Positions 3,001 through 26,409 of a stretch of DNA of 26,409 nt are shown here, piece after piece. A program made the translations under genes and the position numbers. The notes beneath the pieces were generated by a model. The model was not told the origin of the DNA. It saw nothing but the letters and a program-made list of their open reading frames with translations, and ran no database searches. The first letter of the stretch is position 1, and every line of letters starts with the position of its first letter. Origin of the DNA: Mogibacterium sp. (GTDB lineage: Bacteria > Bacillota > Clostridia > Peptostreptococcales > Anaerovoracaceae); the NCBI GenBank assembly GCA_021442505.1, contig JABUTC010000001.1:1-26409 (forward strand). The letters run 5' to 3'.

Positions 3001-3512
3001 TCAGTAATCGTATCTTTGTGATAAGCCAATAAGGCTCCTTCGGCGAAATTAGTATTTGGTTCATAAGCATACGCATAAGTCAACCGAGTCGATTCTGTTG
3101 ATTTTGGGAATTTTATTAAATAACGATATCCTTGTTTATCCTCTTTGTTTTGGTCAAGCAACCATCGATTAGCTTGCCCAGAATTATCGCCCATTTTCTC
3201 GAAATAATTAATCGAAATATAATCTCCATCGTTGAGATATCGTTTAGTTCCAATAATATACTTCGCGCTGCTCCACACAGCTTGAAATATAAACACTGTA
3301 GATTCAACATCCGTCAAATCAGCAGTAGCTCCAGGAGCATACGTCTGGCCATCATAACTCCATCCTTCGAATTTATAATTTTCATTGAAAAATGGGTCTT
3401 TTAGGTTTGCCAGCTGAGTTGGCATGGTAAATATCTTGTTTTGCTGGACTTTACGCTCTGGAAATACACCGGAGGTTTTTGCACCAGTAAAATCTGCTAC
3501 ATAATTAGCCAT
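12..3512 (-). CDS. Large tail fibre/adhesin-like protein (1166 aa): InlB B-repeat, parallel beta-helix, BspA/DUF285-like LRRs, WGA cap
   Basis: SD AAGGAG 5 nt before ATG; N-terminal YKFEGWSYDGQTYAPG..FQAVW (B-repeat); repeated N-x-A..GG motifs (YNNKAGHGGVV, HHNEAGDTGGVF, HLGGAI); LRRs ISDNAFSDSGITSI and WDTNSLRWVNGMFKGCTSLEAI; ends KWGAPNATVYYVN-TAG. Product is inferred. Confidence 0.75.
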   Translation of the reverse strand: MANYVADFTGAKTSGVFPERKVQQNKIFTMPTQLANLKDPFFNENYKFEGWSYDGQTYAPGATADLTDVESTVFIFQAVWSSAKYIIGTKRYLNDGDYISINYFEKMGDNSGQANRWLLDQNKEDKQGYRYLIKFPKSTESTRLTYAYAYEPNTNFAEGALLAYHKDTITEYDLNGCIWDCNNTSDGQRGAHAVGIVISPASKGSIIFKSSADLKGRVTKGYHSILWTDSIANVLFENIEFTGNYGNGAWPEFYCGSDSCGSGSSEWIFRDCDIHDNDCQSFVNNGLMHSIFCFNKPNHVIQYESGKIYNEGGWHTTDQNSIWYARGTLASFQKSYSYCRLSLGKWKDTETPGPEIYNLGTKSISLYHMPYWGALYSVNGSLARIDVWNADIHHCYASNSGGFACLDGHSVLLLHEGCKIHDCINYNDFGNIGMHLGGAITLVGDDNPSNGAGAFWLARAGHRLEIYGGKYYNNEIKIYNGNNTNSRGGFLGIEKPLERAYDTYYDIYGGEFYNNKAGHGGVVGFSYYNNSAKSGTYVRLKYDKNLSSSQGIKIHHNEAGDTGGVFCQTLDHCWLEVSGDVDIYQNKAKSHSVFGYDAGIYNMHYDLGNKDLSDRIHFPRIHHNHETSGNYGIGLTTWTVLTQYGALVRLFGNLQIFSNTCTSNNLPGNFRFHQYDGSPMFGVYNRLGEYSHIEYEAEMQRSTMQEGFTPYGSFRWLAVSYDGDIVSEGDEYKFQCNSIYRSSSTTPYEETGIVKFVPTVPGSSGNNLPGRGSLVFTLGKQHEDRAIFIGKGRNKYSVDSSDKKIPYISDNAFSDSGITSIYISGRCKNNPEVANQYPWGAESANIYFGAGTDYPYNANDTSEFPDFRYWRPYAVLFNDRVMEFSWDFPESSITSTHYPIAIYGGYKDDYDKFTKYQSIWWYSDLWNMAVGSSPNGSGFGWDSAAWPRWMNQPNIYTSSKSPTSIVWNDNIPVHNYSWFAGKLPTGVDFRYVRSIKGTPGGRLISSLNRAFQNYSTQSGNVVKLEELDLDFNSTENLYNTICMCEGQSKLTKIDGIENWDTNSLRWVNGMFKGCTSLEAISFRSWKFTDDGETLNQLGKSFIKWNLPSDSTPNNINELGPIFGPTNDCCTGLKSITLPKEVENLWPSGYDTPDKWGAPNATVYYVN

Positions 3513-3521
3513 ATCAACTCC

Positions 3522-4619
3522 TTAGTTAAATACTCCATCAAAAGCATTATCCTCAATTCGATCTATAACAGGAAAGAATATCTCTCGAGCCTTTGGATAA
3601 ATAGTAGTTTCTCCTTCGCAAGAGCACTTTCCAATCTCAAACTTACCTAAATTCTTTGAGTCAGAAAATGCGTATTGACCAAGCTCTTTAAGCTTCCAAA
3701 AATAATTGTGATTGTAGTACAAAGAATTAGTAGTCCAAATAGGATATACATAATCGAGTTTGTCACACCCGCTTAAGGCAGAATCTCCAATATACTCAAC
3801 ATTCGCCAAATATCGATCTACAAACTTATCACAATTTAGAAAAGTTCCATCGCCAATATACTGTAATGGAGAATCGCTACCAAATTTTTCATTCTCATTA
3901 GTTCTTGCATCTAATACTCCAGTAATAGTTTCCAAATTTATACAATTCTCAAACGGAGACATTGTATTAGATTCTAAAACCTTTAATTTCGGAGCCACAA
4001 CTTCCTTTAGAGAAGTACAAGAATTAAATGCTCCTGAGTGAATTGTGGTTGTCTCGTTCAAATATACAAACTCTATTGAAGAACAATGATTAAACATCTG
4101 TTTTGGAATCTCGGTTTCCTTTTCGAGATGAATCCCGATGGATTCGGCAGTACCGACATGCTTTAAATTTGTACATCCATTAAACTGCAGACCATCTTGA
4201 TCAAATATAACGTCCGCAGCCAGTATAACCCTCTCGAGAGAACTGCATTCAGAAAATGCACGATCTCCAACTTTTTTAGCATTTGGAAAATTCGCAGTAG
4301 GTCCGAAAGATATACATCCCCAGAAACACTTATCGCCAATTTCTTTAATCTGAACGCAATCCACAGATTCTAACTGCGTACAATCCGCAAAGACAGAAGT
4401 TCCAAGCTTGGTAATAAGCTCGTCGTCTTTAAAATGTTGAATTGTTCCAGATATAATCTTTCCAAGAGCTTCCGTATCGAAAGTTCCGTTAATGATCTGC
4501 CCTGTAGAGTCTGTGGCAGAAGTATTCTGAGCCAAATATGCTTTTGAAACCGTTTGGCTTCGAATATCCATAATTACTTTACCATGTTCAGTGGTAAATT
4601 TAGCTACAGTTTCTGCCAT
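3522..4619 (-). CDS. BspA-type leucine-rich repeat (LRR_5-like) protein, 365 aa, putative tail-associated adhesin
   Basis: About 10 repeats such as IGDKCFWGCISF, VGDRAFSECSSLERV, IHSGAFNSCTSLKEV, IGDGTFLNC. Start moved from 4640 to ATG 4619 (MAETV) because AAGGAG lies 6 nt upstream. Confidence 0.85.
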   Translation of the reverse strand: MAETVAKFTTEHGKVIMDIRSQTVSKAYLAQNTSATDSTGQIINGTFDTEALGKIISGTIQHFKDDELITKLGTSVFADCTQLESVDCVQIKEIGDKCFWGCISFGPTANFPNAKKVGDRAFSECSSLERVILAADVIFDQDGLQFNGCTNLKHVGTAESIGIHLEKETEIPKQMFNHCSSIEFVYLNETTTIHSGAFNSCTSLKEVVAPKLKVLESNTMSPFENCINLETITGVLDARTNENEKFGSDSPLQYIGDGTFLNCDKFVDRYLANVEYIGDSALSGCDKLDYVYPIWTTNSLYYNHNYFWKLKELGQYAFSDSKNLGKFEIGKCSCEGETTIYPKAREIFFPVIDRIEDNAFDGVFN

Positions 4620-4629
4620 AATATGCTCC

Positions 4630-5538
4630 TTATACATCATCGCAAGCGATGTTAATTGTCAAACCACCAGCTTCGTTCTCGATTTCTACATATGGAATTG
4701 GTTCTACAGTAATATCGTCGCTACACATCTTTCCTTCGGTTTCTAAATCTATATCGGTAGGCATTGGGAATACGTCGTATGGCCCATCATAATATTCAGC
4801 CGAACCACTATAATGCAGCACAACCGTTGCATCTGCACCCCAAGGAGATCCGTCGGATCCTGGGATAGCAGGCTCAGGCCATGGAATCCAAATGTCAGTT
4901 AAGGTATCACATCCAACAAAAGCCCAAGAATCTATATCAATTTTGCTAGATCCTTCGGGCAATTCCATATGGATTTCCTTTAGTCCAACTAATCCATCTA
5001 TAGCATACGCTTTTATCGAAGCTTCTTGAATTGTTAGCGAATTAATAGTATTAGGATTTCGTTCGATATAATCTATGTAAGTTTGCACATCCATAGATCC
5101 GCCGATCTTAATACCTGTTCGATCGTATGCCGTTTTGTCTTGTGCAAGTGTTTCTTTGGTAACCGTCAAGGGTCTAAGATCTATAGGATTTCCATCAGGA
5201 TAAATGTAATCTCCATATACAGGAATTCTCGTATCAGGATCAAATCCTATAAGTTCTCTTCTTGGAAAGCTGACCATATTATACACTTGCCATTTGGGCA
5301 AGAAACTTGTGTCTTTAGTCAGATTAAAAGAATCTCCAGGTTGATACAATTCTGTATCTTCTGAAGAATCATACCATCCGAGAAAAGCATATGGATAGTG
5401 CGAAATGTTCCATGGGTCTTCGTCCGTAGACAACGGAAGAATGTAGTCACCCGCTGGAACATCTTTAGTAGCACCATCATATGGAAGGCGTCCGGATTCA
5501 TCTAAATATCCGTTAAAAGCAAAGTTTACTTTTGGCAT
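4630..5538 (-). CDS. Accessory tail protein (302 aa): InlB B-repeat, short LRR, PWGA cap, C-terminal ITVEPIPY..NEAGG motif
   Basis: SD AAGGAGG 6 nt before ATG, TAATG coupling with the upstream gene; YAFLGWY..LYQPGDSFNLTKDTSFLPKW; IDSWAFVGCDTLTDIWI; GSPWGADATV. Confidence 0.75.
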   Translation of the reverse strand: MPKVNFAFNGYLDESGRLPYDGATKDVPAGDYILPLSTDEDPWNISHYPYAFLGWYDSSEDTELYQPGDSFNLTKDTSFLPKWQVYNMVSFPRRELIGFDPDTRIPVYGDYIYPDGNPIDLRPLTVTKETLAQDKTAYDRTGIKIGGSMDVQTYIDYIERNPNTINSLTIQEASIKAYAIDGLVGLKEIHMELPEGSSKIDIDSWAFVGCDTLTDIWIPWPEPAIPGSDGSPWGADATVVLHYSGSAEYYDGPYDVFPMPTDIDLETEGKMCSDDITVEPIPYVEIENEAGGLTINIACDDV

Positions 5539-5822
5539 TAGTGCCCTCCTTCATATGTATCCTTTATCTCATACCACGTACTTAACTCGGTTTTATCAAT
5601 ATCTTTGATTTTGTAAAAATGTTCATTGTCGTTAGTAAGCAAATATCCATCTGAAGCAACCAAACGATACCAAGCATTCTTATAATCAACCATAGGCCCT
5701 GGTTTTTCAGTGGTCACTACTAGATAGCCATCCTTCATGTATTTGTACAATTGAAGAACTTCAAAGTTTTTTTCCATTTTGAATGTTTTTTGCGATTTAG
5801 CAATTTCATTCCGCAAGCTCAT
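5538..5822 (-). CDS. Small tail-fibre-associated hypothetical protein (94 aa)
   Basis: SD GGAGG 6 nt before ATG 5822 (MSLRNE), preferred over 5840; WYRLVASDGYLLTN..WYEI resembles small proteins I recall beside LRR fibres in gut phages (not verified). Confidence 0.65.
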   Translation of the reverse strand: MSLRNEIAKSQKTFKMEKNFEVLQLYKYMKDGYLVVTTEKPGPMVDYKNAWYRLVASDGYLLTNDNEHFYKIKDIDKTELSTWYEIKDTYEGGH

Positions 5823-7041
5823 CGAGGACCTCCACTTCATGACCAGTCTGTTGATACTGAATAGGATTCAGCCACACACCAGACTTTGGTTTTAAGAATT
5901 GTTGCGCTTCGAACATCGGAACTCGTGGAACAGCTGAGTATGGAATGCCAACTCCTTCTCCTTGAGTATCAGAGATGTCGCAAACGTATCCAGTTCCGTA
6001 TTCATTTGCTACTGGATCGAACTTAATCGGCTTAACGGTAACGCTAGATAGAACTTTATACTCGTCAGGCTTCTTAACGTATTTGTGATTGCAACTTCCT
6101 TGCACTTCGATCGCAATTTCGCCCGACCCACCACTGTCAGTATACCATAGATTTGGATTTGGTGTATCGATTACGGAGGCAATTAGATAAAGTTGCTCTC
6201 CTGTTTCAGGATCTATGACATCATGAACCAGAATGTAGCCTTCCTTTGCGTAAATACGATACCAATTTCCTCTGAAACCTTGTACTGGTTGAGTCATTGG
6301 CATAATTTCCATTTCGCCAGTTTCTGGATCTTCTTGCCTCTGAACTATTGCTTCTACACGATTAAGATCTTCATTAAACGAATACTCAACTTCGAAATAA
6401 TCGATATTATCGTCTGGCTCTATAAGCTGTTGAGCTTCTGGAATCTCTGGTGGATCTACTTCACCCCAAGGATAATATACGTTTGTCTTCAAAGCGCCCC
6501 ATGGTGCTCCAGTAACATATAATTCTGGTCCAGGAAGCAAAGCAGTGGCTTCGTCATACTTGAAAGGAACGTATAAATCCTTAATATCCCAGCATCCTTC
6601 AAGCAAACCTTTATTAAGAGTCCAACTAAGCTTAGCATTGTAGTTTGTAGGCTCCCAACTAGATATATCAAGTTCTGCTGTAGGATCAGTTCTATAATTT
6701 CTAACCAAATTACCAAACGCATCTCTAAACATAGAGGCCACTGAGGTAGCATTAATGGTTTTAAAATTAAGAGCTTCTAATACATCGTGAATGTTACTCG
6801 CGATTGGAGGTTCAGACTTAGTCAAGTCTATCTGATCAAACCAATATGCGGCTGCTCTAGGCTCTACTGTTCCTTCGAAAACGATGCGATCAATAAACTC
6901 TCGCTCGTTATGCCAAGGAACCTCTGAGGCAGACATGTATTCTTTGGTAAGCCATTCTCCTCCATACAATACTGGATATTCTGGTTCAGGCTTATTTACT
7001 CGATTACTATTGCCTGCTTTGGTTCTTTTTTCTTTAGCCAT
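5806..7041 (-). CDS. Accessory tail protein (411 aa) with a DUF285/BspA-like LRR segment and PWGA cap
   Basis: SD GGAGG 6 nt before ATG; VPWHNEREFIDRIVFEGTVEP..YWF, ATSVASMFRD, LDISSW, GAPWGALKTNVYY; C-terminal LSSVTVKPI motif. Confidence 0.7.
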   Translation of the reverse strand: MAKEKRTKAGNSNRVNKPEPEYPVLYGGEWLTKEYMSASEVPWHNEREFIDRIVFEGTVEPRAAAYWFDQIDLTKSEPPIASNIHDVLEALNFKTINATSVASMFRDAFGNLVRNYRTDPTAELDISSWEPTNYNAKLSWTLNKGLLEGCWDIKDLYVPFKYDEATALLPGPELYVTGAPWGALKTNVYYPWGEVDPPEIPEAQQLIEPDDNIDYFEVEYSFNEDLNRVEAIVQRQEDPETGEMEIMPMTQPVQGFRGNWYRIYAKEGYILVHDVIDPETGEQLYLIASVIDTPNPNLWYTDSGGSGEIAIEVQGSCNHKYVKKPDEYKVLSSVTVKPIKFDPVANEYGTGYVCDISDTQGEGVGIPYSAVPRVPMFEAQQFLKPKSGVWLNPIQYQQTGHEVEVLDELAE

Positions 7042-7751
7042 GGTTCTCCTCCGAAATATAAATAGAATGGATTCTTAGGAGCTTTTATTGGAGAATATAT
7101 AACTTCATTTCTCATATTAATACGGTTACATTTCAAACTAAAATCTTGCTTTTCAGCAGATCGATTTTTCACGCTTCCGCATAATACAATTTCTTTCTTT
7201 TTAGTAAAACCAAGAAATATGAATTTTGTGATTTCCCCATTAACCCTAAAATATGTGTAATCACCTGGATGTAAATCGCGATACCTAGAATATTCCAAAT
7301 GATTAAGCGCCTCATCAACCGAAATATAGCTTTGTCTATGCAGCTTTAGAACGTTCTCTATCTTTTCTCCTTCATATATGCCCATCAATGACATATAGTC
7401 TTTAGAATATACAGATTCATCCTGTGCAACTCGAATAACAAAACTTTCTGTCTTATTTACCTGTAAAACCAACACTCGAGCGCCGATTACAACGTTCTGC
7501 AAATATGGTTGTAAATATGCTAAATATTCACTAGAATCCGTCGCTCCGCTAACTCTAACCCATACCGTTCCAGGTTCGCAAACTCTAGGCAAATATTGAC
7601 CTGAATGTTCTGGATCAGGATCTCGATCGCTTGTTGCGGTGATTAATCCCCAGAAATAACGGGGGTATGGTTCTTTCTTATTTTGGAATAGTATTTTTCC
7701 AAGTCTTTGATAAAGATTATACTCATTTGGTTTAATCTCGGTATTGTCCAT
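6996..7751 (-). CDS. Hypothetical baseplate/tail-tip protein (251 aa), probable N-terminal OB-fold-like domain
   Basis: SD AAGGAG 7 nt before ATG; position directly after Tal; VWVRVSG..LAYL..IGARVLVLQV pattern. Function is inferred. Confidence 0.55.
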   Translation of the reverse strand: MDNTEIKPNEYNLYQRLGKILFQNKKEPYPRYFWGLITATSDRDPDPEHSGQYLPRVCEPGTVWVRVSGATDSSEYLAYLQPYLQNVVIGARVLVLQVNKTESFVIRVAQDESVYSKDYMSLMGIYEGEKIENVLKLHRQSYISVDEALNHLEYSRYRDLHPGDYTYFRVNGEITKFIFLGFTKKKEIVLCGSVKNRSAEKQDFSLKCNRINMRNEVIYSPIKAPKNPFYLYFGGEPWLKKKEPKQAIVIE

Positions 7752-7753
7752 TA

Positions 7754-10057
7754 TTAATCTCCTTGCGGTACATTTGTGAACTCAAAAGTAGCATTCGAAG
7801 CTCCCCATGGATATCCAGAAACTTCATCTTTATCCTTAAACGGAAGACGAATAAGCATTTGCTGGGTACATCCTTCAAACATTCCAGTGAAAGCATCACC
7901 TACTCTAGTTTTAATCTTCCAAGAACCCATATCAATACATTCTAACGCTTTACAATTTCTAAAAGCATAACGCATGTTACGAATGTTTTTGGTTGTTGAA
8001 TACCCATATGGATCGGAAGAAGACCTTTCCCATCTAGATAAATCCATACCATAAGTTGCAAGATCACCAGAATTCTTAACATTGTTTTTATTATACATCG
8101 ACCTAAGCTGAGGAGCACCGTTGTCAAACATATGCTCCATATTAGTCAAGTTTGATACACACCAATTTGTGCATGGAAAGTATACAGGACCAGTAGAATA
8201 ATTAGGATTAACTGCTCCACCACTCTGATACCAAACATGTATATCTCGGCAAAACATATAAGCCATTGTAGTAACTGAAGATGTACTAGACGGATGACTA
8301 GCATCATCATGCCAATAGTACATAGATTTGCAAACCCTGTCAAAGTATGATCTATTAGGCTTACGAGGAACCCAACTAGCATATACATTATGCCATACAT
8401 GCGATAAATCGGTGCATTCCGACATATCTATTATATTACGAAACTTCTCTACAATTGTAGAATTATTTTGGTCAAAACGTTGATCATCTATAGACCAATC
8501 AAGGCCAGTAAAGTTTCCTGTTCCATGAGTATACCAATCAGGACTGGTAGCAATTTCGTCAGAGACTTGCTTAGCTTTGTCTGTAATGTTATAATCGTAT
8601 CCAAACCAATACTTTAAAGACTTTGGCTTCCATCTTTTTGTAGAAGTAAAATTCAGAAATCGAATCACATCTAAAGTATTTCCACCCATATCACGGTTCT
8701 CAACTTTATAGAAAGCAGCACCGTCCATATCAGAATAATTAGTATTATTAATGTTTGTGAAAGATTGGATATTCTCCTTCTTATTCTTCTCTAATGTGTA
8801 TTGCCTTTCAGGAAAGATTTGAATGTCATTCCACCAGATAGCATAATTACCAGAATAAATAGGGCCACGATAACCATCTTTGTCTTTAACCGTATAGGCC
8901 GTAGGCTCGTAATCATTGCGTTGCCACTCGATCACCGCTGTAGAGTCTATTTTGATTGTTTTCTCTTGTAGCTTAGAGATAGTAAACTCAGTCTGAGATC
9001 CAGCGGCCAAGGTAATCTTCATCGTAACAATTACGCCGTCTACAGAGATCCCAGCAGAATCATAAGCTAAACTAATGGCTTGCTCTGGCTCTAACGGATA
9101 GTAAGCTGACGTAAAATTCGTAGTATCTGCATAAGTATAGCTTTCATTAAGCTTTTCGATACAAAGTTGACGAAGTTCAGCTAACCTTCCATTGATATCA
9201 GAAGCCCCTAGTCCAGAAGCAGTCTCACTAGCCGTAATCTCTTGGCCTACAACATTAATACTAAACTCGCTATTCGAATCATAGTTAGAAGCCGTAGCAA
9301 CCAAACGCTCATCTTCAGTTTCATAAGTCATAACATAACGATTTGGAATGTCTTTTGTTAAAGTAGTAGAAACATTTGGCTGAAATATAGACTTATCGCC
9401 TGATTCAAAAGTATGAACTATCTGTCTCTCTTTTACTTTAACAAATTTAGATAAAAGAACATTACCATAAGCATCTGGAGTCGCATCATTAAACTCACAT
9501 AGTGTAAGCAAACCATTAACTACCTCTAAGTAACTAGTCCCTGGAGGATATATAATGTCTGAAACTATATGGGTTTCTTGAGCTAAGCCATTTGTTATAC
9601 ATGGAACGTTACAGTCTTCAACCAATTCTTTTACTTTAGCAACTAAATCAACGCCTGCTTTAACGGTTAATGTGGAAGTCAACTGTCTTTGCATAAGAAT
9701 AGATAAAACCGATTGACAATCCAACGTGCCAGAAACATTTGGTCCATTGTAACTTGGATCGGACTTTGTGTATTTAAGAGTAGCCAATAAAATAGATTGG
9801 TATTCACTATTTACATCAGTTACATCGTAATAAATTCTAACATACTTACGATCTTCAATGTCATCGACTCCTTCGAAATTTAAAGAAGCTGTTACTTTAA
9901 CATCATTAGAGGCGGATAGCTCTAGAGAACCTCCTGTGATTTTAGGAAGTGTTCCTTTTTCAACAAAAGTGAAAGATTTATCGGAACCGGATCCTGAAAC
10001 ACTCAAATCAGTCAAAACATATCTAAAGTTTTCGACTCTCATCGATGACCAATCCAT
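7754..10057 (-). CDS. Tal/baseplate-hub-like minor tail protein (767 aa) with a C-terminal DUF285-like LRR extension
   Basis: True start likely ATG 10057 (MDWSS) with AGGAG 7 nt upstream (the track start 10081 is an unsupported GTG). Position two genes after TMP; DATPDAYGNVLLS, PNRYVM hub-like motifs; C-terminal WCVSNLTNMEHMF, NIRNMRYAFRNCKALECIDMGSW, GYPWGASNATF. Confidence 0.75.
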   Translation of the reverse strand: MDWSSMRVENFRYVLTDLSVSGSGSDKSFTFVEKGTLPKITGGSLELSASNDVKVTASLNFEGVDDIEDRKYVRIYYDVTDVNSEYQSILLATLKYTKSDPSYNGPNVSGTLDCQSVLSILMQRQLTSTLTVKAGVDLVAKVKELVEDCNVPCITNGLAQETHIVSDIIYPPGTSYLEVVNGLLTLCEFNDATPDAYGNVLLSKFVKVKERQIVHTFESGDKSIFQPNVSTTLTKDIPNRYVMTYETEDERLVATASNYDSNSEFSINVVGQEITASETASGLGASDINGRLAELRQLCIEKLNESYTYADTTNFTSAYYPLEPEQAISLAYDSAGISVDGVIVTMKITLAAGSQTEFTISKLQEKTIKIDSTAVIEWQRNDYEPTAYTVKDKDGYRGPIYSGNYAIWWNDIQIFPERQYTLEKNKKENIQSFTNINNTNYSDMDGAAFYKVENRDMGGNTLDVIRFLNFTSTKRWKPKSLKYWFGYDYNITDKAKQVSDEIATSPDWYTHGTGNFTGLDWSIDDQRFDQNNSTIVEKFRNIIDMSECTDLSHVWHNVYASWVPRKPNRSYFDRVCKSMYYWHDDASHPSSTSSVTTMAYMFCRDIHVWYQSGGAVNPNYSTGPVYFPCTNWCVSNLTNMEHMFDNGAPQLRSMYNKNNVKNSGDLATYGMDLSRWERSSSDPYGYSTTKNIRNMRYAFRNCKALECIDMGSWKIKTRVGDAFTGMFEGCTQQMLIRLPFKDKDEVSGYPWGASNATFEFTNVPQGD

Positions 10058-10058
10058 G

Positions 10059-12434
10059 TTATCTCTCCTCTCCGTCGACACGTGTTATCTTAAGTGATAT
10101 AGTTCCACGCCATTTAGCATCGTCACCTTCATCATTATGCTTTATGCTTGGAACCACATTAGCATTGAAACAGTATCCTCTAGAAGACTTGTAGAAACAA
10201 TTTCCTTGGTACTCTTTCCATAGCCTAAGCCATTTTCGCTCATCATCATAAGTAAATACCAAACCATCTAAGCTGACCGACATACCTAATTGAGGCATTG
10301 TGTATTGCACTGGCCATTCACGGTCTGCATAATATACTGTAGTCGCATTTGGATTTGATAAATCAACCGATTCAGTAGTATTATATGTTAAATGAGCAAC
10401 ATTATCTTCGGTTCTTTCATTACCAAATAAGAAATAAGAACCTTTTGATTTACGAATGTATTTTAATTCCGTTACAGATACGCCGCCATCGTTATAATAT
10501 GATTTGGCAATATATTTATATTCTATATTTAATGGACAGTAATAATCTGTAATAACAGAACCAAATTTAAGGTCCGAACCTATTTGAATTGGATTTCCCC
10601 ATTTCGTAGCTGGTTTATCTAAAACATTTTGTGTATATTCCGTTTCAGATCCATATCCTATTGGATTAACTCTAAATAAATCAATCCTATCAGGTTTAAG
10701 TCCTTCGTACTCTTTAAAGACAAGTTCACGAATGTACTCACCTTGCTGATCTGGATCAGGAACTTTTCGTAATATAGCTTTTGGATTAGATACGAAATCC
10801 AATCTAACATACGTTTCACCTGAAGAAGTATTTACATCCTCATATGGATATGTATATGTGTCATTGTAATAAGGCTTAATGACCACTGGCTCGGGTGCCG
10901 TATATTCCACATAAAAGTCTCGTAATATTGTAGAGGATGAAAGACCTGAAGTAGACTCAACAATGAAAGCAATTGTATAATAATGCTTATTTGGAAAGAA
11001 AACTTCGTTTCTATCAAACGTATAGCTGACTAATTGCTCGTGCTCAGAACTTCCTTGAGTAACGACTGGATCTACATAATCATCAAATATAGATTCGTTA
11101 ATTATCTTTGGTTTGTTCTGATCGGTATAATCTTTATCATCAATGATAGTAATATGAAGCTTATTAAATTCGCCACATAGATCTGTGACTGAAAGTTCCG
11201 TAACTAAAGGAAGAGTTGTTAAAGTCATATGATATGGCTTTGTAATTGTAAGAGTTGGAGCTTGAAGCAACTGGAATGAGAAATATCCAGAATCACCCCA
11301 TTCATCTTTTATACCTTTAGTTTGAAGCTCGTAGGTATAAACCTCATCTATATCAAGATTTGTAATATCTAAATCATATAGATTAGCATTGCTTTCTTCA
11401 ACTATAGACCATTCTTCCTCTTGAATTTGTTTAATTCTAAAAGCTCTTTGCTCAGATCCATCAAGGTCGTTATGTGTCCATTCAATTCTTAAAGATTCTT
11501 TAAGTTTATCGATTGCAGGACATCCTATTGGACTAGAGATATTAGGAGCATATGGTTTCCAAGGCTCATATACTTCTCCAGACCAGTCTGTCCAATCAGA
11601 ACAAATATAAACAATTGATCCTGTACGATTATCAACCAAAATATTACGAGCAGCATAATACTTATACTGAACCCCGCTTTCAACAGAATCATTCGTTATA
11701 ATTACCTCTGTTGGCTCATATAATGGCGTTGACGATGTAGGAGGATCAGAAGGAGGTTTGTACTGATTATCATTCGACTTATAAAGCTGTATCTTCCAAG
11801 ATATTAAAGTTGGATCTGGAATTGTGTACAGTTTATTACTTAATGATATCTTAGCACATACAGATCCAAGATCTTCGTTATAAGCAATAGATGAAATAAT
11901 ACTTTGAGGTGGAAGAGGATCAGTGTATAGATTCGTACTTTCATTCGATGTTGCAGATCCGTATTCATTATTTGCTACGATTCGATATCTATACACATGA
12001 CCGTCTACAACAGAGCGGTCAGTAAACGTAGTAACTTCATTACTTAAACCAACTGACAAAGTATTCCATATATAATTGTCTGTCATCCTTTGTACTGTTT
12101 GGGATGTAATGATTCCCGTTTGCTGACCTTGATACTCCCATGTAATGGAAACAGCATTGTTGTCTAAAGAAGCATGCGTAATTGCTGGAGCGCTAGGCTC
12201 AGTCATTGTGTACAGTGCATAGAAAACAGTATCTAAATCCCTTTGATAAATGTCTCCAGGTTTATACTTTACGTCTGTTCCGCTGTATTCATCAGTCCAA
12301 CCCTGAAACACATAGTACTTTTTGTAAGGAGCCGTAGAGGTGATTACATAAGGCTGACCTTCATGTTTGACTTCAGAAGGTGGAATAGGCGATCCACCTC
12401 TGGTGTCATACATCATAGTGTATTGATTAGCCAT
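10059..12434 (-). CDS. Distal-tail (Dit)-like minor tail protein (791 aa) with N-terminal InlB B-repeat and fibronectin type III-like domains
   Basis: SD AAAGGAGG 6 nt before ATG; first gene after TMP; YVFQGWT..YKPGDIY B-repeat; Fn3 signature PSAP..VSITW..TTFTD..DGHVYRYRIVANNEYGS. Confidence 0.75.
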   Translation of the reverse strand: MANQYTMMYDTRGGSPIPPSEVKHEGQPYVITSTAPYKKYYVFQGWTDEYSGTDVKYKPGDIYQRDLDTVFYALYTMTEPSAPAITHASLDNNAVSITWEYQGQQTGIITSQTVQRMTDNYIWNTLSVGLSNEVTTFTDRSVVDGHVYRYRIVANNEYGSATSNESTNLYTDPLPPQSIISSIAYNEDLGSVCAKISLSNKLYTIPDPTLISWKIQLYKSNDNQYKPPSDPPTSSTPLYEPTEVIITNDSVESGVQYKYYAARNILVDNRTGSIVYICSDWTDWSGEVYEPWKPYAPNISSPIGCPAIDKLKESLRIEWTHNDLDGSEQRAFRIKQIQEEEWSIVEESNANLYDLDITNLDIDEVYTYELQTKGIKDEWGDSGYFSFQLLQAPTLTITKPYHMTLTTLPLVTELSVTDLCGEFNKLHITIIDDKDYTDQNKPKIINESIFDDYVDPVVTQGSSEHEQLVSYTFDRNEVFFPNKHYYTIAFIVESTSGLSSSTILRDFYVEYTAPEPVVIKPYYNDTYTYPYEDVNTSSGETYVRLDFVSNPKAILRKVPDPDQQGEYIRELVFKEYEGLKPDRIDLFRVNPIGYGSETEYTQNVLDKPATKWGNPIQIGSDLKFGSVITDYYCPLNIEYKYIAKSYYNDGGVSVTELKYIRKSKGSYFLFGNERTEDNVAHLTYNTTESVDLSNPNATTVYYADREWPVQYTMPQLGMSVSLDGLVFTYDDERKWLRLWKEYQGNCFYKSSRGYCFNANVVPSIKHNDEGDDAKWRGTISLKITRVDGEER

Positions 12435-20975: not shown

Positions 20976-22910
20976 CTAGTTACCCTTCTTCTCGCTTTTT
21001 TTCTTATCTACATTTGTAGCAGCTTTACGAGTCTCGATACAAATTGCAGAATATGGCTTAATGAGAGCACCAGAACAACGAGTTTCAATTAGGTACTTAT
21101 ACTTATTGTAGTCGATATCAAAGTCATCGAACATATTTACAGCACCGCCCTTGTCAGCGCCAACATTATAATCCTGAAGATTTACAATAAGACCCTGAAG
21201 AGTTCTTTCTTTTGTCTCACCAGCAAGGGTTCTCTTCTGATTCTCCATTACAGGAACAGAGATGATCTTAGAAACGCGCATAGCAGTAGCAAGCTCTTGC
21301 TCAGTGTTGTACTTACGGCGCTTGTTAAGATCCTCAAGAAGTAGACAATCTGTTAGAATATCCTCTGTGCAGAATAGTGTTGGATTACCAGAACCCTTAT
21401 ATTCTTTACGAGCCTTGATAGACTGACGAATGAACTTCTCAGCAATCTCGTCACTTGTAAGAGTGTCGGCATCGATAACTGCTTGAATTGTGTAGAACTC
21501 GTCGTCCTTCCAAATTGGACGAATGTGATCCTCTTTGATCTTGTACTGGCTAGAATTCAGACGACCATCACCAATAAGGAATGCACGTGCGAGTTCCTCA
21601 TCTAGCATACCACGCATCTCAGTCTTAAGCCAAGAAACAACATCCATATCCGTGATATCGATAACATCGTCACGATCCATGGACTGGTGTTTATAAACAG
21701 TCTGAGGTTCTGTTACACGCTTAAGCAAAGAGAAGACCTCATCAATCTTCTTCTCGCCTTTTATGTAACCCAGAGCCCTAGCTTCGTCCTCAGTGATATC
21801 TGCATATAGGCACTTAATCCTGGAGAATGGAGTATTGTGAACGCCACTCATAACAGGTGCCACCCAATCTGTTCTACGCTGAACAAAGATTGGAGTATCA
21901 GTTACATTTTTTGCATCTGGGAACAAATAATCGATGTTCTCAATGCCATGCTGTAAGAAAGCTTTCTTCATAGAGCCAACGGACTCTGCATCGCGAAGGA
22001 TACCTACCATCTCATCGTGAGAAAGTGTATCGTTCAAACCATTAGGATCTTCGCCTTCGAAAATGTTATGTTTCATTGATTCCTCCTTGTTATTGAATGC
22101 GGATTGTTCCATATCTCCGCCTTCACCATTACTTTCAGTTGGTACATTACCCTTTTGTGCATCTTCAATAGCCATACCAATCATAGCATAAACGGCTTCT
22201 TTCTGTTTATCATTAAGAGTGTTAAAGATATCACCAATTGTCTCTTCAGACTGGTCACCTTCGTCACCCTGGGGGGCTTCTTCAGGTGCATCTTCAGGCT
22301 TCTCTTGTTTCATGGCTTTGCCATCTTTGATGTCTTTTTCTTCGGTCTTTTCTATCTCGACCATTACTTTTTTGTCTTTTTCAGTAGGCATATCTTTCCT
22401 TTCCTTCTTCTCTGAACCTCCAGAAGAACCACCACAAGCATGAACTAGCACTGGTTGATCAGAAGAATAAATGCATTCGTCCTCTACATAGGTTTCAACA
22501 CCATGCTGAAGAACTACGTTGTCAATAAATGCTCCTGGATTTGCTCCTGCCAATACGACACTTAGTTCTCTAATAACGCCATGCAATACATTAGAACCTT
22601 CCTGCTTTAGCTTATTAGCATAAATAGAAAGAGATCTAATATCACCATGCTTAAGCAATTCTTTAACGTCTTTTGCTTGTTCCGTATCGTTAAGATAACC
22701 ATAAGCATAAACGCCTTCAGATCCACGATCTTCTAGAGCAGCATGACCGATCACATTTGCTGGATCATTGTGCTGATGCTGCCAAACTAGAGGAACTGTT
22801 TTACCATCGCAGTGCTTAAAAGCATTAGGCTTAATTACACGACCATCAGAGCAACGAATATCGCATCTTGTAGCCCATCCAGAGAAATCGTAACTTTTTT
22901 CTTTACCCAT
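20976..22910 (-). CDS. Prohead protease-scaffold-major capsid protein fusion (644 aa, HK97 fold)
   Basis: SD AGGAG 5 nt before ATG; HK97 gp4-like protease motifs PLVWQH (putative catalytic His45), LSIY (putative Ser95) and ELSVVLAGANP; acidic low-complexity linker (about aa 160-300); capsid domain from GIENIDYLFPDA to ETRCSGALIKPYSA. Confidence 0.9.
   Translation of the reverse strand: MGKEKSYDFSGWATRCDIRCSDGRVIKPNAFKHCDGKTVPLVWQHQHNDPANVIGHAALEDRGSEGVYAYGYLNDTEQAKDVKELLKHGDIRSLSIYANKLKQEGSNVLHGVIRELSVVLAGANPGAFIDNVVLQHGVETYVEDECIYSSDQPVLVHACGGSSGGSEKKERKDMPTEKDKKVMVEIEKTEEKDIKDGKAMKQEKPEDAPEEAPQGDEGDQSEETIGDIFNTLNDKQKEAVYAMIGMAIEDAQKGNVPTESNGEGGDMEQSAFNNKEESMKHNIFEGEDPNGLNDTLSHDEMVGILRDAESVGSMKKAFLQHGIENIDYLFPDAKNVTDTPIFVQRRTDWVAPVMSGVHNTPFSRIKCLYADITEDEARALGYIKGEKKIDEVFSLLKRVTEPQTVYKHQSMDRDDVIDITDMDVVSWLKTEMRGMLDEELARAFLIGDGRLNSSQYKIKEDHIRPIWKDDEFYTIQAVIDADTLTSDEIAEKFIRQSIKARKEYKGSGNPTLFCTEDILTDCLLLEDLNKRRKYNTEQELATAMRVSKIISVPVMENQKRTLAGETKERTLQGLIVNLQDYNVGADKGGAVNMFDDFDIDYNKYKYLIETRCSGALIKPYSAICIETRKAATNVDKKKSEKKGN
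22074..22088 (-). promoter_or_regulatory. Internal ribosome-binding site and in-frame ATG (Met279) inside the protease-capsid gene
   Basis: Minus strand reads AAGGAGG-AATCA-ATG-AAA-CAT (MKH): a perfect SD at 5-nt spacing. Confidence 0.7.
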
Positions 22911-22925
22911 AATTTCTCCTATCTT

Positions 22926-24257
22926 TTATCCATCTTCATAGTACGGCGTTACGGCTGGGTCATTCATATTCACATCTAAATATGACTGTCCAGTTCCTTG
23001 ATCCATTGGCGGAACAGGTGGAGCATTAGGATCTATTCCCATAGTATCTGTAGGATATAGATTCTTATTGCTTAACTCTTCCGCTATTGGTGCATCAGAA
23101 ACAGGATAACCAAGTTCATCTCTGAATACATTCGACTCAACAATAGCATTACGTGTAAATGAATCTGCTATAGCGGCCATTTCGGTAACAGGAACAAACT
23201 TCAATGGATCTAAGAAGTATCCAATAGCTTGCCCTTGCGTTCTAGCAGTCTTAGTAATCCATTTTCTGGACATTTCGACTACTATCGCATTTAGTATTGG
23301 CGAAATAGTACGCTTATAGTAGTTATTCATAACTACAGCATCTGCAGTCCCTTTGAAAACGTCTTCCGTTAACCCTAACTGGTTGTATAACATGCTCGTT
23401 AGGTACTCAATTTGCGCTAGAAGATTATTTTCAGCAGGTCTGTTCAACTGCGTTACACGTTCTGTGCCATCAATATATGCAATTCCGTATTTTGACTCAA
23501 ATAATTGTTTTTCAATGTCTTCTTTTCTCTTAAAAGCTTGATCTCGCTTCTTATCTGTCTTAATTGTGTATGGTAACTGAATCAAAAGATCTAATTTACC
23601 AGAACTGCTTTGCTTATCTATAGCATCCAAATAAGCTAGCTTACGAATAAGCCTTTGAAGAGTAGAATTTGGTTGATTCATAACCGCATATAGAGGATTT
23701 TCTATTATAGCGCATAGCTTCTTCGGAACCGTTATCTCCTTTCGGTCTTGTAAAGCTTGGTTAAATAGATCTACCTTAATATGCTCTGGATACCAATCAA
23801 CTATCTTTGCTACTCGTAGAGATAGAATATCAAACGATCCTTTATACGGATTAGAATCGTAATCTACAGGAACAACGGCTACGGATCCTTCTTGAAACAT
23901 CGATAATACAATATCTGTAACCAACGCACTACCTATTTGATCGATATTAGCCTCATAATTTAGACAATCATTCAAAGAGCTATTTATTTCATATTTAAAA
24001 CGATGTTGTTCATCTCTCATCTCATGTCTAAGTCTAACTTCAGAAACATCCATAGCTATTTTATTATATAATCCAGCTACGATGGTTCTTTCGTTATCAA
24101 ACCTTAGCCTAACACGATCAGGTCTAGTAGAATTTGCAGGACCATAGTTTTCCCAATGTTCTGATGTAACATTGACGTTCTTTATATCCGTCGGATCCTT
24201 ATTAGCGGAAAAGATATTCCACTCATGTTTATAGCGGGTCCAAAAAGATGTCGCCAT
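22926..24257 (-). CDS. Portal protein, HK97 family (443 aa)
   Basis: SD AAAGGAGGT; LNDCLNYEANIDQ, GKLDLLIQLPY, YIDGTERVTQLNR, YYKRTISPI, NAIVESNVFRDELG; position before the protease/capsid gene. Confidence 0.93.
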   Translation of the reverse strand: MATSFWTRYKHEWNIFSANKDPTDIKNVNVTSEHWENYGPANSTRPDRVRLRFDNERTIVAGLYNKIAMDVSEVRLRHEMRDEQHRFKYEINSSLNDCLNYEANIDQIGSALVTDIVLSMFQEGSVAVVPVDYDSNPYKGSFDILSLRVAKIVDWYPEHIKVDLFNQALQDRKEITVPKKLCAIIENPLYAVMNQPNSTLQRLIRKLAYLDAIDKQSSSGKLDLLIQLPYTIKTDKKRDQAFKRKEDIEKQLFESKYGIAYIDGTERVTQLNRPAENNLLAQIEYLTSMLYNQLGLTEDVFKGTADAVVMNNYYKRTISPILNAIVVEMSRKWITKTARTQGQAIGYFLDPLKFVPVTEMAAIADSFTRNAIVESNVFRDELGYPVSDAPIAEELSNKNLYPTDTMGIDPNAPPVPPMDQGTGQSYLDVNMNDPAVTPYYEDG

Positions 24258-24258
24258 T

Positions 24259-25179
24259 CTACCTCCTTTGCCTTACATATTTAGCTTCTTCTTTTAAAGT
24301 ATTATCGTAGATATTAGAAGTTAGCTTTCCAGCCTTCTTAATATCTCTATGTTTACCTATAGCAGATCCAACCTCAGATAAAGCAGCCGTTTTAAGCAAA
24401 GATCTAATAGCTCCTTGCCCTCTAGCTCTATATGTCATATATGCTTTCGTCTGGAATGGATGCCCCATCAAAGAAGCTACTAATTTAACAGTTCTTCCAC
24501 GAGAATTCGCTTGTCTTTGCATTCCTTGATCTATTTCTGAAGATTTATCTGCTTTAGCCATCTCAACTAAAGCTTTTTTGGTCTTACCTTTGGAATATGC
24601 TCTTTCAGCTTTCTTAGTGTGCCTTTTTGTAGACCAAGATCTATAGTTATATGGCTGATTCTTTTTACGGGCTCGTCTAATGCCCCATCGCATCCCAGCG
24701 ATCCCGTAGTGAGCTAAAAAATAACCATCTCCATCGATAGATGAATGCTTTGCCGCATTAGACGCTGAAGATTTTATCTTCTTAGAACTCTTATAAATCG
24801 TTTGAGCATCTTTGTAGTCTTGTTGAAGCGTCTTATCTAAAGACATATTAACTACTTTGCTAGATCCAATCTTTACCGCTTTCTTAAACACAGAATCTTT
24901 GTCATTAAACAATGTATTTGTTATAAACTTCTTAACTTGGTAGCCAGGTTTGGACTTAGAGTACAATTCTTTAAATCTTTGCTCCCTTTCTAACCTATTT
25001 ATTCTGTGATCTAAGGCTTTATCGGACATCCCTCTTAAATTCTTTTTAGTAAACTTAAGATCTGCATTACGCTTCTGCTTATTAGCATCTAAACGAGCTT
25101 GTTGTGAAGACTTTTTTCGTCTAACACCCCATTTTTGGCCTCGTATGCCATAATGGACGAGTACATCTGCATCATACAT
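24259..25179 (-). CDS. Highly basic head-module protein (306 aa) with two HYGxxGxxWGxRR motifs; putative internal virion or DNA-binding protein
   Basis: SD GGAGG 9 nt before ATG; LVHYGIRGQKWGVRR (aa 7-21) and LAHYGIAGMRWGIRR (aa 155-169); manual count about 73 K/R versus about 26 D/E. Confidence 0.7.
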   Translation of the reverse strand: MYDADVLVHYGIRGQKWGVRRKKSSQQARLDANKQKRNADLKFTKKNLRGMSDKALDHRINRLEREQRFKELYSKSKPGYQVKKFITNTLFNDKDSVFKKAVKIGSSKVVNMSLDKTLQQDYKDAQTIYKSSKKIKSSASNAAKHSSIDGDGYFLAHYGIAGMRWGIRRARKKNQPYNYRSWSTKRHTKKAERAYSKGKTKKALVEMAKADKSSEIDQGMQRQANSRGRTVKLVASLMGHPFQTKAYMTYRARGQGAIRSLLKTAALSEVGSAIGKHRDIKKAGKLTSNIYDNTLKEEAKYVRQRR

Positions 25180-25522
25180 TTTCTTCAGCCTCCGCTTCTG
25201 CTATTTCGTTTAATCTCCATTCAAGCTCGTCCGCATTCTTCTTGAATGACTCATTGACAAAGGAACTAGTTGGTGGATCGAATAAAAGTCTTACTCTCAA
25301 ATACATATAACTTTTTATTAATGCTAAAACATCAATGTTGTCTATGTACTCTGACCACGTTTTAGTCTTATCAGATATTGTAAAACCTTTTTCTCCTACG
25401 CCAAGCTCATTAAGAATACTAAATACAGTATTTATATGCATAATTATATCGACGTCGAAGTTAGTATCTTCTTCAGCGATACCTAAAACTTTTTTAATCG
25501 AAGTTAAGATACTCTCATTCAT
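25172..25522 (-). CDS. Head-tail connector (HK97 gp6/SPP1 gp15-like, 116 aa)
   Basis: SD AAGGAGG; SILTSIKKVLGI..FDVDIIMHIN, YMYLRVRLLFDPP..ELEWRLN helical connector pattern. Confidence 0.8.
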   Translation of the reverse strand: MNESILTSIKKVLGIAEEDTNFDVDIIMHINTVFSILNELGVGEKGFTISDKTKTWSEYIDNIDVLALIKSYMYLRVRLLFDPPTSSFVNESFKKNADELEWRLNEIAEAEAEENV

Positions 25523-26409
25523 TCGAAATCCTCCTTATGCAACTTATATGCTACGTAAGCGTCCATTAACGCTGCTACGTTATCTATCTTATCACTGTAT
25601 CTCTTCTTATAAAGCTTGCGATTGCCATTATTATCTTCTAAAGTAATACAATTCCCCATTGTATAAGACATTATCTCTTGGTCAAAGCATAACATCTTTT
25701 CTTCTGCTAGTTTTTTAAGTTCGCCAAGTGGAACCGATTCTGTTCGTACTCCTTGCTTTACTTTTTCGATTCCAAAAGGTCCATTCTCTTGTTCCCATCT
25801 ATCCATAAACTGCTTAGCATTATACGGATCATAACCAACAGAGCAAACATTATAATCATACTTAACTATGTGTTCGTCAAGATCTTCATAAATCTCATCG
25901 AGATCTAAAACAGATCCATCCATAACCCTTAACGATCCTTCCGCTAAGAATTCTTCATACTTTTGTCTTGCTGCTAAAGTTAATTTCTTAAACGTAAGTT
26001 CTGAAATGTAACTTATGGCTTTAATGCCATACGATCCGTCGTATAGTGGAAACATAAATGTAAATGCACAAAAGTCGTCTCCTTGAGAAAGGTCAATTCC
26101 AAGTGAACAATCCATTCCCCAATATTCTTTTGGACTATGTGGAAGCGTTTCATCATACGTAAAGAAATATGTATAACCTTCTGTTGGTATACCAAATCTT
26201 TTAGCTAACATTTCGTTTCGATAAGATGGAACTGCTTCAGCTCTTTCAACTTCTGCTTGATATGTCTCAAAAGAAACGGTTTTTCCAATGTTAGGCTGAG
26301 CTTTCTCCCACAAAGATGGATCTGCGACTTCAGAAACATCATCTAAACGATAATGAAAGATAGATACATGTGGATTAATGTAATCTCCTTTAAGAATATC
26401 CATCAATTC
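25519..26409 (-). CDS. terL: Terminase large subunit, C-terminal nuclease part (5' end lies beyond the window)
   Basis: Frame open to the window edge; WEKAQPNIG, LGIDLSQGDDFCAF (RNase H-like catalytic Asp), VGYDPYNA, KIDNVAALMDA. Confidence 0.93.
   Translation of the reverse strand, partial: ELMDILKGDYINPHVSIFHYRLDDVSEVADPSLWEKAQPNIGKTVSFETYQAEVERAEAVPSYRNEMLAKRFGIPTEGYTYFFTYDETLPHSPKEYWGMDCSLGIDLSQGDDFCAFTFMFPLYDGSYGIKAISYISELTFKKLTLAARQKYEEFLAEGSLRVMDGSVLDLDEIYEDLDEHIVKYDYNVCSVGYDPYNAKQFMDRWEQENGPFGIEKVKQGVRTESVPLGELKKLAEEKMLCFDQEIMSYTMGNCITLEDNNGNRKLYKKRYSDKIDNVAALMDAYVAYKLHKEDFE

Follow-up and report, generated by a model that had tools for sequence, protein, structure and literature searches.

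A peptide of about 20 residues, recognized by the Pfam family DUF7211 (PF23847), is a mark carried by accessory proteins whose genes adjoin the DNA-packaging genes in one large phage lineage. In the window analysed here, which is the whole stretch of 26,409 nucleotides, a single protein (P0001) bears this tag twice, and its sequence relatives identify it as a fusion of two tagged basic proteins. We favour, with a probability of about 0.5, the reading that P0001 is a capsid-loaded basic internal protein, which the tag would address to the procapsid interior and which would be ejected together with the DNA. Pfam gives no function for DUF7211, and a literature search returned no mention of the family, nor of its core peptide GMKWG in any phage context.

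The tandem protein and its head module

The features discussed below are as follows, in the order of transcription.

25519–26406, minus strand: large terminase (TerL), C-terminal part, cut by the window end (Pfam TerL_nuclease, E 1e-39)
25172–25522, minus strand: head-tail connector (Pfam Phage_connect_2, E 8.9e-39; phrog_4247), the stop of which overlaps the P0001 start
24259–25179, minus strand: P0001, two DUF7211-tagged basic units in a single frame, 306 aa, stop codon at 24259–24261
24739–25179, minus strand: unit 1, residues 1–147, tag and basic domain with the block MSD..L..R.NRLE.E..FKEL; a free-standing DUF7211 gene of contig L094 (169 aa) is 37% identical
25117–25161, minus strand: tag 1, residues 7–21, L7-V8-H9 then YGIRGQKWGVRR; Pfam DUF7211 match at 25108–25167, 30.7 bits
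24262–24738, minus strand: unit 2, residues 148–306, tag and second, unrelated basic domain; the free-standing P0008 (151 aa) is 37% identical over 121 aa (E 2e-22)
24673–24717, minus strand: tag 2, internal, residues 155–169, L155-A156-H157 then YGIAGMRWGIRR; Pfam DUF7211 match at 24667–24720, 35.7 bits
22926–24257, minus strand: portal (phrog_12, E 1.3e-22; Pfam Phage_portal 26.6 bits, under the cut-off)
22515–22910, minus strand: S78-type prohead protease domain, residues 1–132 of a 644-aa protease-linker-capsid fusion (Pfam Peptidase_S78, E 5.6e-8; AF2 pLDDT 83–91)
21948–22514, minus strand: acidic linker or scaffold-like region, fusion residues 133–321, in which all five histidines (H136, H157, H281, H298, H321) are of the hydrophobic-x-His type
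20979–21947, minus strand: HK97-type capsid domain, fusion residues 322–644, first residues GIENIDYLFP (weak Pfam Phage_capsid match over residues 372–622; AF2 pLDDT mostly above 85)

The order of transcription is thus large terminase, connector, P0001, portal, and the fusion of S78 protease, acidic linker and HK97-type capsid protein, the latter corresponding to phrog_3270 (E 3e-211). P0001 lies on the strand of the head operon, between connector and portal, as the preliminary description of this DNA had proposed from the letters alone (Phage_connect_2 upstream and phrog_12 downstream, at E of about 9e-39 and 1e-22). Its ATG stands 9 nt 3' of a GGAGG and overlaps the final codons of the connector gene; the portal ATG follows 1 nt past the P0001 stop, with its Shine–Dalgarno (SD) sequence within the final P0001 codons. 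On a longer contig of the same phage (L088), the region upstream contains the full 581-aa TerL, an HNH endonuclease and a small basic protein, and nothing else. These genes being untagged, P0001 is the sole DUF7211 gene of this head module, in which Pfam detected no MuF gene. On the other side, the protease-capsid fusion is followed by DUF7253, a tail terminator, a major tail protein, a chaperone, a tape measure of 1894 aa and LRR-bearing tail genes. Several large proteins of the tail region (12–12434, minus strand) carry BspA-type LRR, DUF285 and Listeria-Bacteroides repeat domains, and are presumably receptor-binding or adhesin proteins.

Translation of 24259–25179 on the minus strand gives 306 codons without a break. 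Residues 7–21 read LVHYGIRGQKWGVRR (25117–25161) and residues 155–169 read LAHYGIAGMRWGIRR (24673–24717), so that the two L-x-H-headed motif copies reported earlier are exact, and both are above the Pfam threshold. The DUF7211 model is a 25-position HMM with a gathering cut-off of 27 bits; P0001 scores 56.3 bits over two stretches (E 2e-15), and each copy also exceeds the cut-off when taken singly. Pfam gave no match besides DUF7211 at E ≤ 0.1, and no Phage_Mu_F domain is present. The protein is strongly basic (K+R 23.9%, net charge +47, pI 10.5) and has no hydrophobic segment, the highest 19-residue Kyte-Doolittle mean being 0.84. A comparison of one half with the other confined their similarity to the 25-residue tag, the domains being otherwise unrelated. 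The earlier picture of a single ORF with different basic domains, about 24% K/R and no internal SD is therefore sound. Residues 113–162 contain neither an in-frame ATG, GTG or TTG nor an SD-like sequence, which means that unit 2 and its L-x-H are not separately translatable. An identical P0001 protein is encoded on three independent assemblies. This identity rules out a sequencing, frameshift or assembly error as the origin of the fusion, and the tandem arrangement is thus real and translated as a single chain. AF2, run on the P0001 sequence by itself, gave a poor model (pLDDT 48), to which no weight was given.

Units, chains and cargo across the phage lineage

An exhaustive HMMER search of 1.84 billion representatives returned 1528 clusters at E ≤ 1e-3 (representatives at 50% identity). 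DUF7211 is present in every relative recovered. Unit 2 (residues ~151–285) aligns end to end with N-terminally tagged stand-alone proteins of 136–170 aa. Unit 1 (residues ~3–120) aligns in the same way with stand-alone proteins of 116–169 aa, and also matches later units inside multi-tag proteins. Contig L094 has homologues of unit 1 (169 aa) and of unit 2 (P0008, 151 aa) as separate genes flanking the connector gene, and the P0008 gene sits between connector and portal. Since each half is a free-standing tagged gene elsewhere, P0001 is, as judged from these alignments, a fusion of two genes for DUF7211-tagged basic proteins that also occur independently. The proposal of a two-unit chain is borne out in the same way, with several units in one frame, each of them free-standing in other loci. 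Such chains are not restricted to P0001. Among the 149 best relatives of the 1528 clusters, 94 have two to four tags, in a ranking that is biased toward multi-tag proteins since the query itself has two; in a viral sample selected by motif (the best 80 loci described below), 10 of 200 tagged ORFs are multi-tag. The median tag spacing in the 149 relatives is 190 aa, approximately the size of single-unit proteins.

A block following the first tag, at P0001 residues 51–72 (24964–25029, minus strand), is common to ORF7 of Lactococcus phage 1706 and to the 169-aa gene of L094 (L094:3612–4118). The recurrence of this unit-1 block in both suggests, at the level of sequence, that one conserved ‘core’ DUF7211 protein exists beside variable ones.

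The wider distribution was obtained by searching IMG/VR with the tag pattern alone, which gave at least 421 confirmed sites; the best 80 loci, which are not a random sample, were analysed. These 80 loci contain 200 DUF7211 ORFs, one to eight per locus, all co-oriented with the head genes, with a median length of 196 aa, a K+R content of 20% and a tag beginning about 14 residues from the N-terminus. The typical module comprises the connector, tagged genes, TerL (581 aa), further tagged genes, portal, protease-capsid fusion and two genes of about 110 aa. The window's genes often have homologues in these best 80 of at least 421 loci (TerL 76/80, portal 66/80, connector 58/80). The motif does not lie mostly outside head modules with this protease, a distribution that was specifically checked for: the protease-capsid fusion is present in 61 of the 80 loci, which include every locus with about 1 kb or more of sequence 3' of the portal.

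Isolate phage genomes with the same capsid fusion number 244, and their hosts are Arthrobacter, Gordonia, Streptomyces, Lactococcus (1706-like), Rhodococcus, Curtobacterium, Microbacterium and Faecalibacterium. Tagged genes are found in the Rhodococcus phages ReqiPoco6 and ReqiPepy6, as in the phage of P0001, with seven of them around TerL in ReqiPoco6. The 1706 ORF7 gene resembles P0001 in standing beside connector, TerL, portal and capsid/protease fusion, and differs in preceding TerL and in being only about 25% identical to P0001. The family was looked for in 301 genomes of the host phylum and found solely in the present 66%-complete MAG, on three phage-like contigs. One of the two others (C158, L091) holds a sister head module, in which two separate tagged genes (261 and 211 aa) stand before the portal, at the position of P0001. 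On the other (C79, L090), three tagged genes follow genes of tail-fibre-like and glycosyltransferase type, and there is no terminase within 9.6 kb. Because the family is missing from the 300 other genomes of the phylum, these two contigs are probably co-binned virulent phages and the DUF7211-bearing lineage looks virulent.

Most tagged proteins are small, basic and without a Pfam domain. Among 76 larger ones, the glutamine-deamidase toxin fold (Gln_amidase) was found five times, a 2H phosphoesterase four times, a GNAT acetyltransferase three times and an ADP-ribosyltransferase exoenzyme domain once. Very long relatives contain several such enzyme domains, plus LysM, with tags between them. The preliminary description had the motif fused to varied C-termini in related phages, and the GNAT, Gln_amidase, 2H, ADP-ribosyltransferase and LysM domains of tagged proteins support this. 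The position of the enzyme domain varies: it may follow the tag, lie between two tags or stand ahead of an internal one.

Some individual architectures can be noted. The layout tag, GNAT acetyltransferase, tag, basic tail occurs within single ORFs at L014:5194–6531, L021:1941–3041 and L062:1635–2708, and gp6 of Streptomyces phage Bilo, matched via its tag, is annotated as an acetyltransferase. A 2H phosphoesterase (2',5'-RNA-ligase-like) is N-terminal in long proteins with internal tags (ReqiPoco6 gp015 in L092, L057, L072, P0097 and P0154), and the tag is thus not always N-terminal to its cargo. A Gly/Ala-rich transmembrane-like segment is present in 40 of 179 distinct DUF7211 proteins (22%; L008–L087), the median distance from the tag to the segment being about 80 residues, compared with 7.5% of neighbouring proteins of 100–350 aa.

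The hydrophobic-x-His motif in tags and capsid linker

Tag contexts were collected with a pattern that is independent of the histidine, G-[VI]-x-G-x-[KR]-W-G. All 174 distinct contexts nevertheless have His at -2 and L, I or F at -4, the residue at -6 being mostly D, N or E. Given the His-independent pattern, this makes L-x-H an invariant part of DUF7211. The same arrangement is found in the capsid linker of the window, at LQH136, LVH157, MKH281, LSH298 and LQH321. The linkers of 21 non-redundant capsid fusions contain 132 histidines, of which 120 (91%) have L, I, V, M or F at -2, a count that takes in homologous columns and therefore overstates independence. Shuffled linkers gave 28 ± 4.5 of 132 (about 21%), and none of 2000 shuffles reached the observed 120. 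In the capsid domain of the same fusions, the share is only 18%. The acidic linker also has extra histidines that are lineage-specific, and these follow hydrophobic-x-His too.

The fusion was also modelled with AF2 from a 27-sequence alignment (mean pLDDT 70). The model comprises a folded protease (1–132), disordered stretches (135–224 and 253–293) with short helices between, and a confident capsid domain. It places H136 at the end of the protease domain, H157 and H281 in the disordered linker, H298 at the start of a short helix pair and H321 directly before the capsid N-arm. The predicted layout of the linker histidines is one that maturation cleavage sites would be expected to show. A PDB sequence search with the capsid fusion gave no match, hence no structure-derived mature N-terminus. 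We conclude that hydrophobic-x-His truly functions as a short motif in this head system, probably as the site of the capsid-fused S78 protease.

The preliminary description had taken the L-x-H of the tag to be the same as that of the capsid linker, which stands for one side of the motif and not for the other. The five linker sites are real, and tag and linker sites are alike in P3, in P1, in a frequent Ala at P2 and in the acidic residues upstream. After the His they diverge: the tag has Y, H or F at P1' and an invariant Gly at P2', whereas the linker has a small residue (A, S or G) at P1' and D or E at P2'. This difference means that the tag may be non-cleavable. A homology between the tag and the capsid N-arm (L-x-H-Y-G-I-x-G-x-x-W compared with L-x-H-G-I-E-N-I-D-Y-L) was considered and rejected (hhalign P 0.18, not significant). 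Elsewhere in tagged proteins hydrophobic-x-His is at chance level, 24% observed for 21% expected, so that the cargo neither avoids nor accumulates extra sites of this kind.

The portal N-terminus has a conserved block of its own, [RK]-L-x-H-A-W-N-A-F, about 10 residues from the start (portals in L008–L087). Hydrophobic-x-His followed by A, G or S is present in 37 of 54 distinct portals, 26 of these 37 having L-x-H-A; in the window, portal residues 9–16 (24210–24233, minus strand) read Y-K-H-E-W-N-I-F. The lambda portal is trimmed, and by analogy the N-terminal His block may be a third class of protease site.

Proposed capsid loading and cleavage, and the alternatives

The functionally nearest known systems are the T4 capsid-targeting sequence (CTS) and the MuF polymorphic toxins, and sequence features place P0001 outside both. 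In T4, a short peptide targets the internal proteins and Alt, which are basic or enzymatic, and the prohead protease trims them at L/I-x-E (PMC9026906). As with the CTS of IPI-III and Alt, a short peptide is here common to basic proteins and an ADP-ribosyltransferase, with variable cargo, and the rule of the T4 protease gp21 also combines a hydrophobic P3 with a fixed P1, L/I-x-E in T4 and hydrophobic-x-His here (PMC9026906). In contrast, there is no sequence similarity to the CTS, and P0001 has no L/I-x-E, its motif being L-x-H followed by a conserved 12-mer. The T4 CTS precedes the cut and is discarded, whereas the conserved YG..G..WG.RR follows the putative cut and would remain on the product. 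Unlike in T4, the capsid protein is fused to the protease, which is of the S78 type, and tags are also internal, in chains. The MuF polymorphic toxins and SPP1 gp7 associate a conserved N-terminal head-module part with variable toxin-like C-termini, in a packaging module beside the portal (Jamet et al. 2017, PMC5576092). The DUF7211 proteins share with MuF toxins the conserved head-module part, the variable toxin-like cargo and the DNA-packaging module next to the portal; they differ by the lack of a Phage_Mu_F domain in P0001, by a tag of about 20 residues in place of a folded domain, and by a lineage that looks virulent. Encapsulin cargo-loading peptides are C-terminal short peptides that address cargo to the inside of an HK97-fold shell. 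The tag resembles them as a short peptide associated with an HK97-fold shell, its capsid loading being putative, and differs since encapsulin peptides are C-terminal and of another sequence.

The packaging and delivery that we infer for P0001 would start with the docking of the protein, through its tag of about 20 residues, inside the assembling procapsid. P0001 would then remain in the head as a basic internal protein, and would exit with the DNA at infection. The S78 protease may in addition cut after H9 and H157, which would yield two basic proteins of about 17 kDa, with pI 10.3 and 10.9, each starting with YG..G..WG.RR. This cleavage is proposed because the [D/N/E]-x-L-x-H of the tag matches the hydrophobic-x-His pattern that fills the linker next to the protease; it is a tentative addition to the loading proposal, with the odds leaning somewhat against it. 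The two-unit P0001 offers a natural test case for cutting at internal tags.

If the tag loads capsids, it would define a large class of phage proteins that are injected and easy to recognise, comprising 1528 representative clusters (50% identity), and would account for the variable genes that surround the terminase. The lineage is rich in cultivable members, the 244 fusion-bearing isolates including SEA-PHAGES actinophages and dairy lactococcal phages. A more far-reaching proposal, which we consider doubtful, is that the tag is a docking-and-cutting module: the capsid-fused S78 protease would cut after the His of hydrophobic-x-His, and chains of one to four effector units would be packed, released and injected. 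The units would then be basic proteins, acetyltransferases, deamidase and ADP-ribosyltransferase toxins and 2H phosphoesterases, and the whole would amount to programmable cargo delivery in siphoviruses, independent of the T4 CTS. Capsid loading by the tag would by itself make hydrophobic-x-His a candidate cleavage code for an uncharacterised branch of HK97-type prohead proteases, and the tag a short peptide for loading foreign proteins into siphovirus heads.

The tag could also be a docking peptide that is never cleaved, an alternative which is rather unlikely on the present evidence and which takes several forms. The peptide would bind the portal in the manner of SPP1 gp7 and further minor head proteins of the MuF type, would bind the capsid interior, or would sit as a pseudo-substrate in the protease cleft, and P0001 would stay whole as a bivalent protein of 35 kDa. 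The aromatic P1' and invariant P2' Gly of the tags, which set them apart from the linker sites, point in this direction, and L-x-H and W-G are equally invariant, which would be expected of a 20-mer that forms one binding surface. The tagged genes adjoin the portal gene and are tightly packed, and the absence of a detected MuF gene leaves that niche free in this head module. In T4, a residue change can stop processing while targeting persists (PMC9026906). However, a tag at each unit junction, in chains of up to four units with single-unit spacing, exceeds what docking alone would need, as do enzyme domains that precede the tag, and the P3, P1 and acidic upstream pattern common to tag and linker sites also speaks against this alternative.

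The one link of this family to the virion is a database annotation, the label ‘structural protein’ that GenBank gives to phage 1706 ORF7 (ABV91214). The 1706 protein has two to three tags, two clear ones being 150 aa apart, with the unit-1 block after the first. The ‘structural’ labels of Rhodococcus phages were copied from 1706 ORF7 by similarity and are thus not independent of it. A literature search for virion proteomics of the relatives, including mass spectrometry of 1706, found none, and the papers on Arthrobacter phages and on Giantsbane mention the capsid-protease fusion and give no proteomics. A complex prediction of the whole protease-capsid fusion with P0001 residues 1–60, with alignments for both, scored 0.00; run without controls, it carries no weight either way.

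The accessible primary data thus place no tagged protein in virions, and the DUF7211 proteins might work inside the infected cell, where they would assist packaging or assembly around terminase and portal, reside in membranes, or modify the host early after expression from the head operon. The tag would then be an interaction or regulatory motif unrelated to capsid loading. The threefold excess or so of transmembrane-like segments over neighbours of similar size (22% against 7.5%) and the three tagged genes of C79, which have no terminase nearby, would fit such a role. It appears improbable in view of the strict linkage of the family to a single type of head module with the protease-capsid fusion, and of toxin-like cargo that resembles the packaged MuF toxins (PMC5576092) and T4 Alt (PMC9026906). 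The 1706 ORF7 label and the lack of a hydrophobic segment in P0001 also speak against it.

That the tandem arrangement is a functionless accident, a recent read-through fusion of two adjacent genes tolerated by the phage, is hardly credible: its units are indeed separate genes in relatives, and a word-indexed search of 5.8 billion proteins returned P0001 itself and no full-length relative, but multi-tag chains are frequent and old, in the best clusters, in the viral sample and in 1706 ORF7 alike, and the identical fused protein was recovered from three samples.
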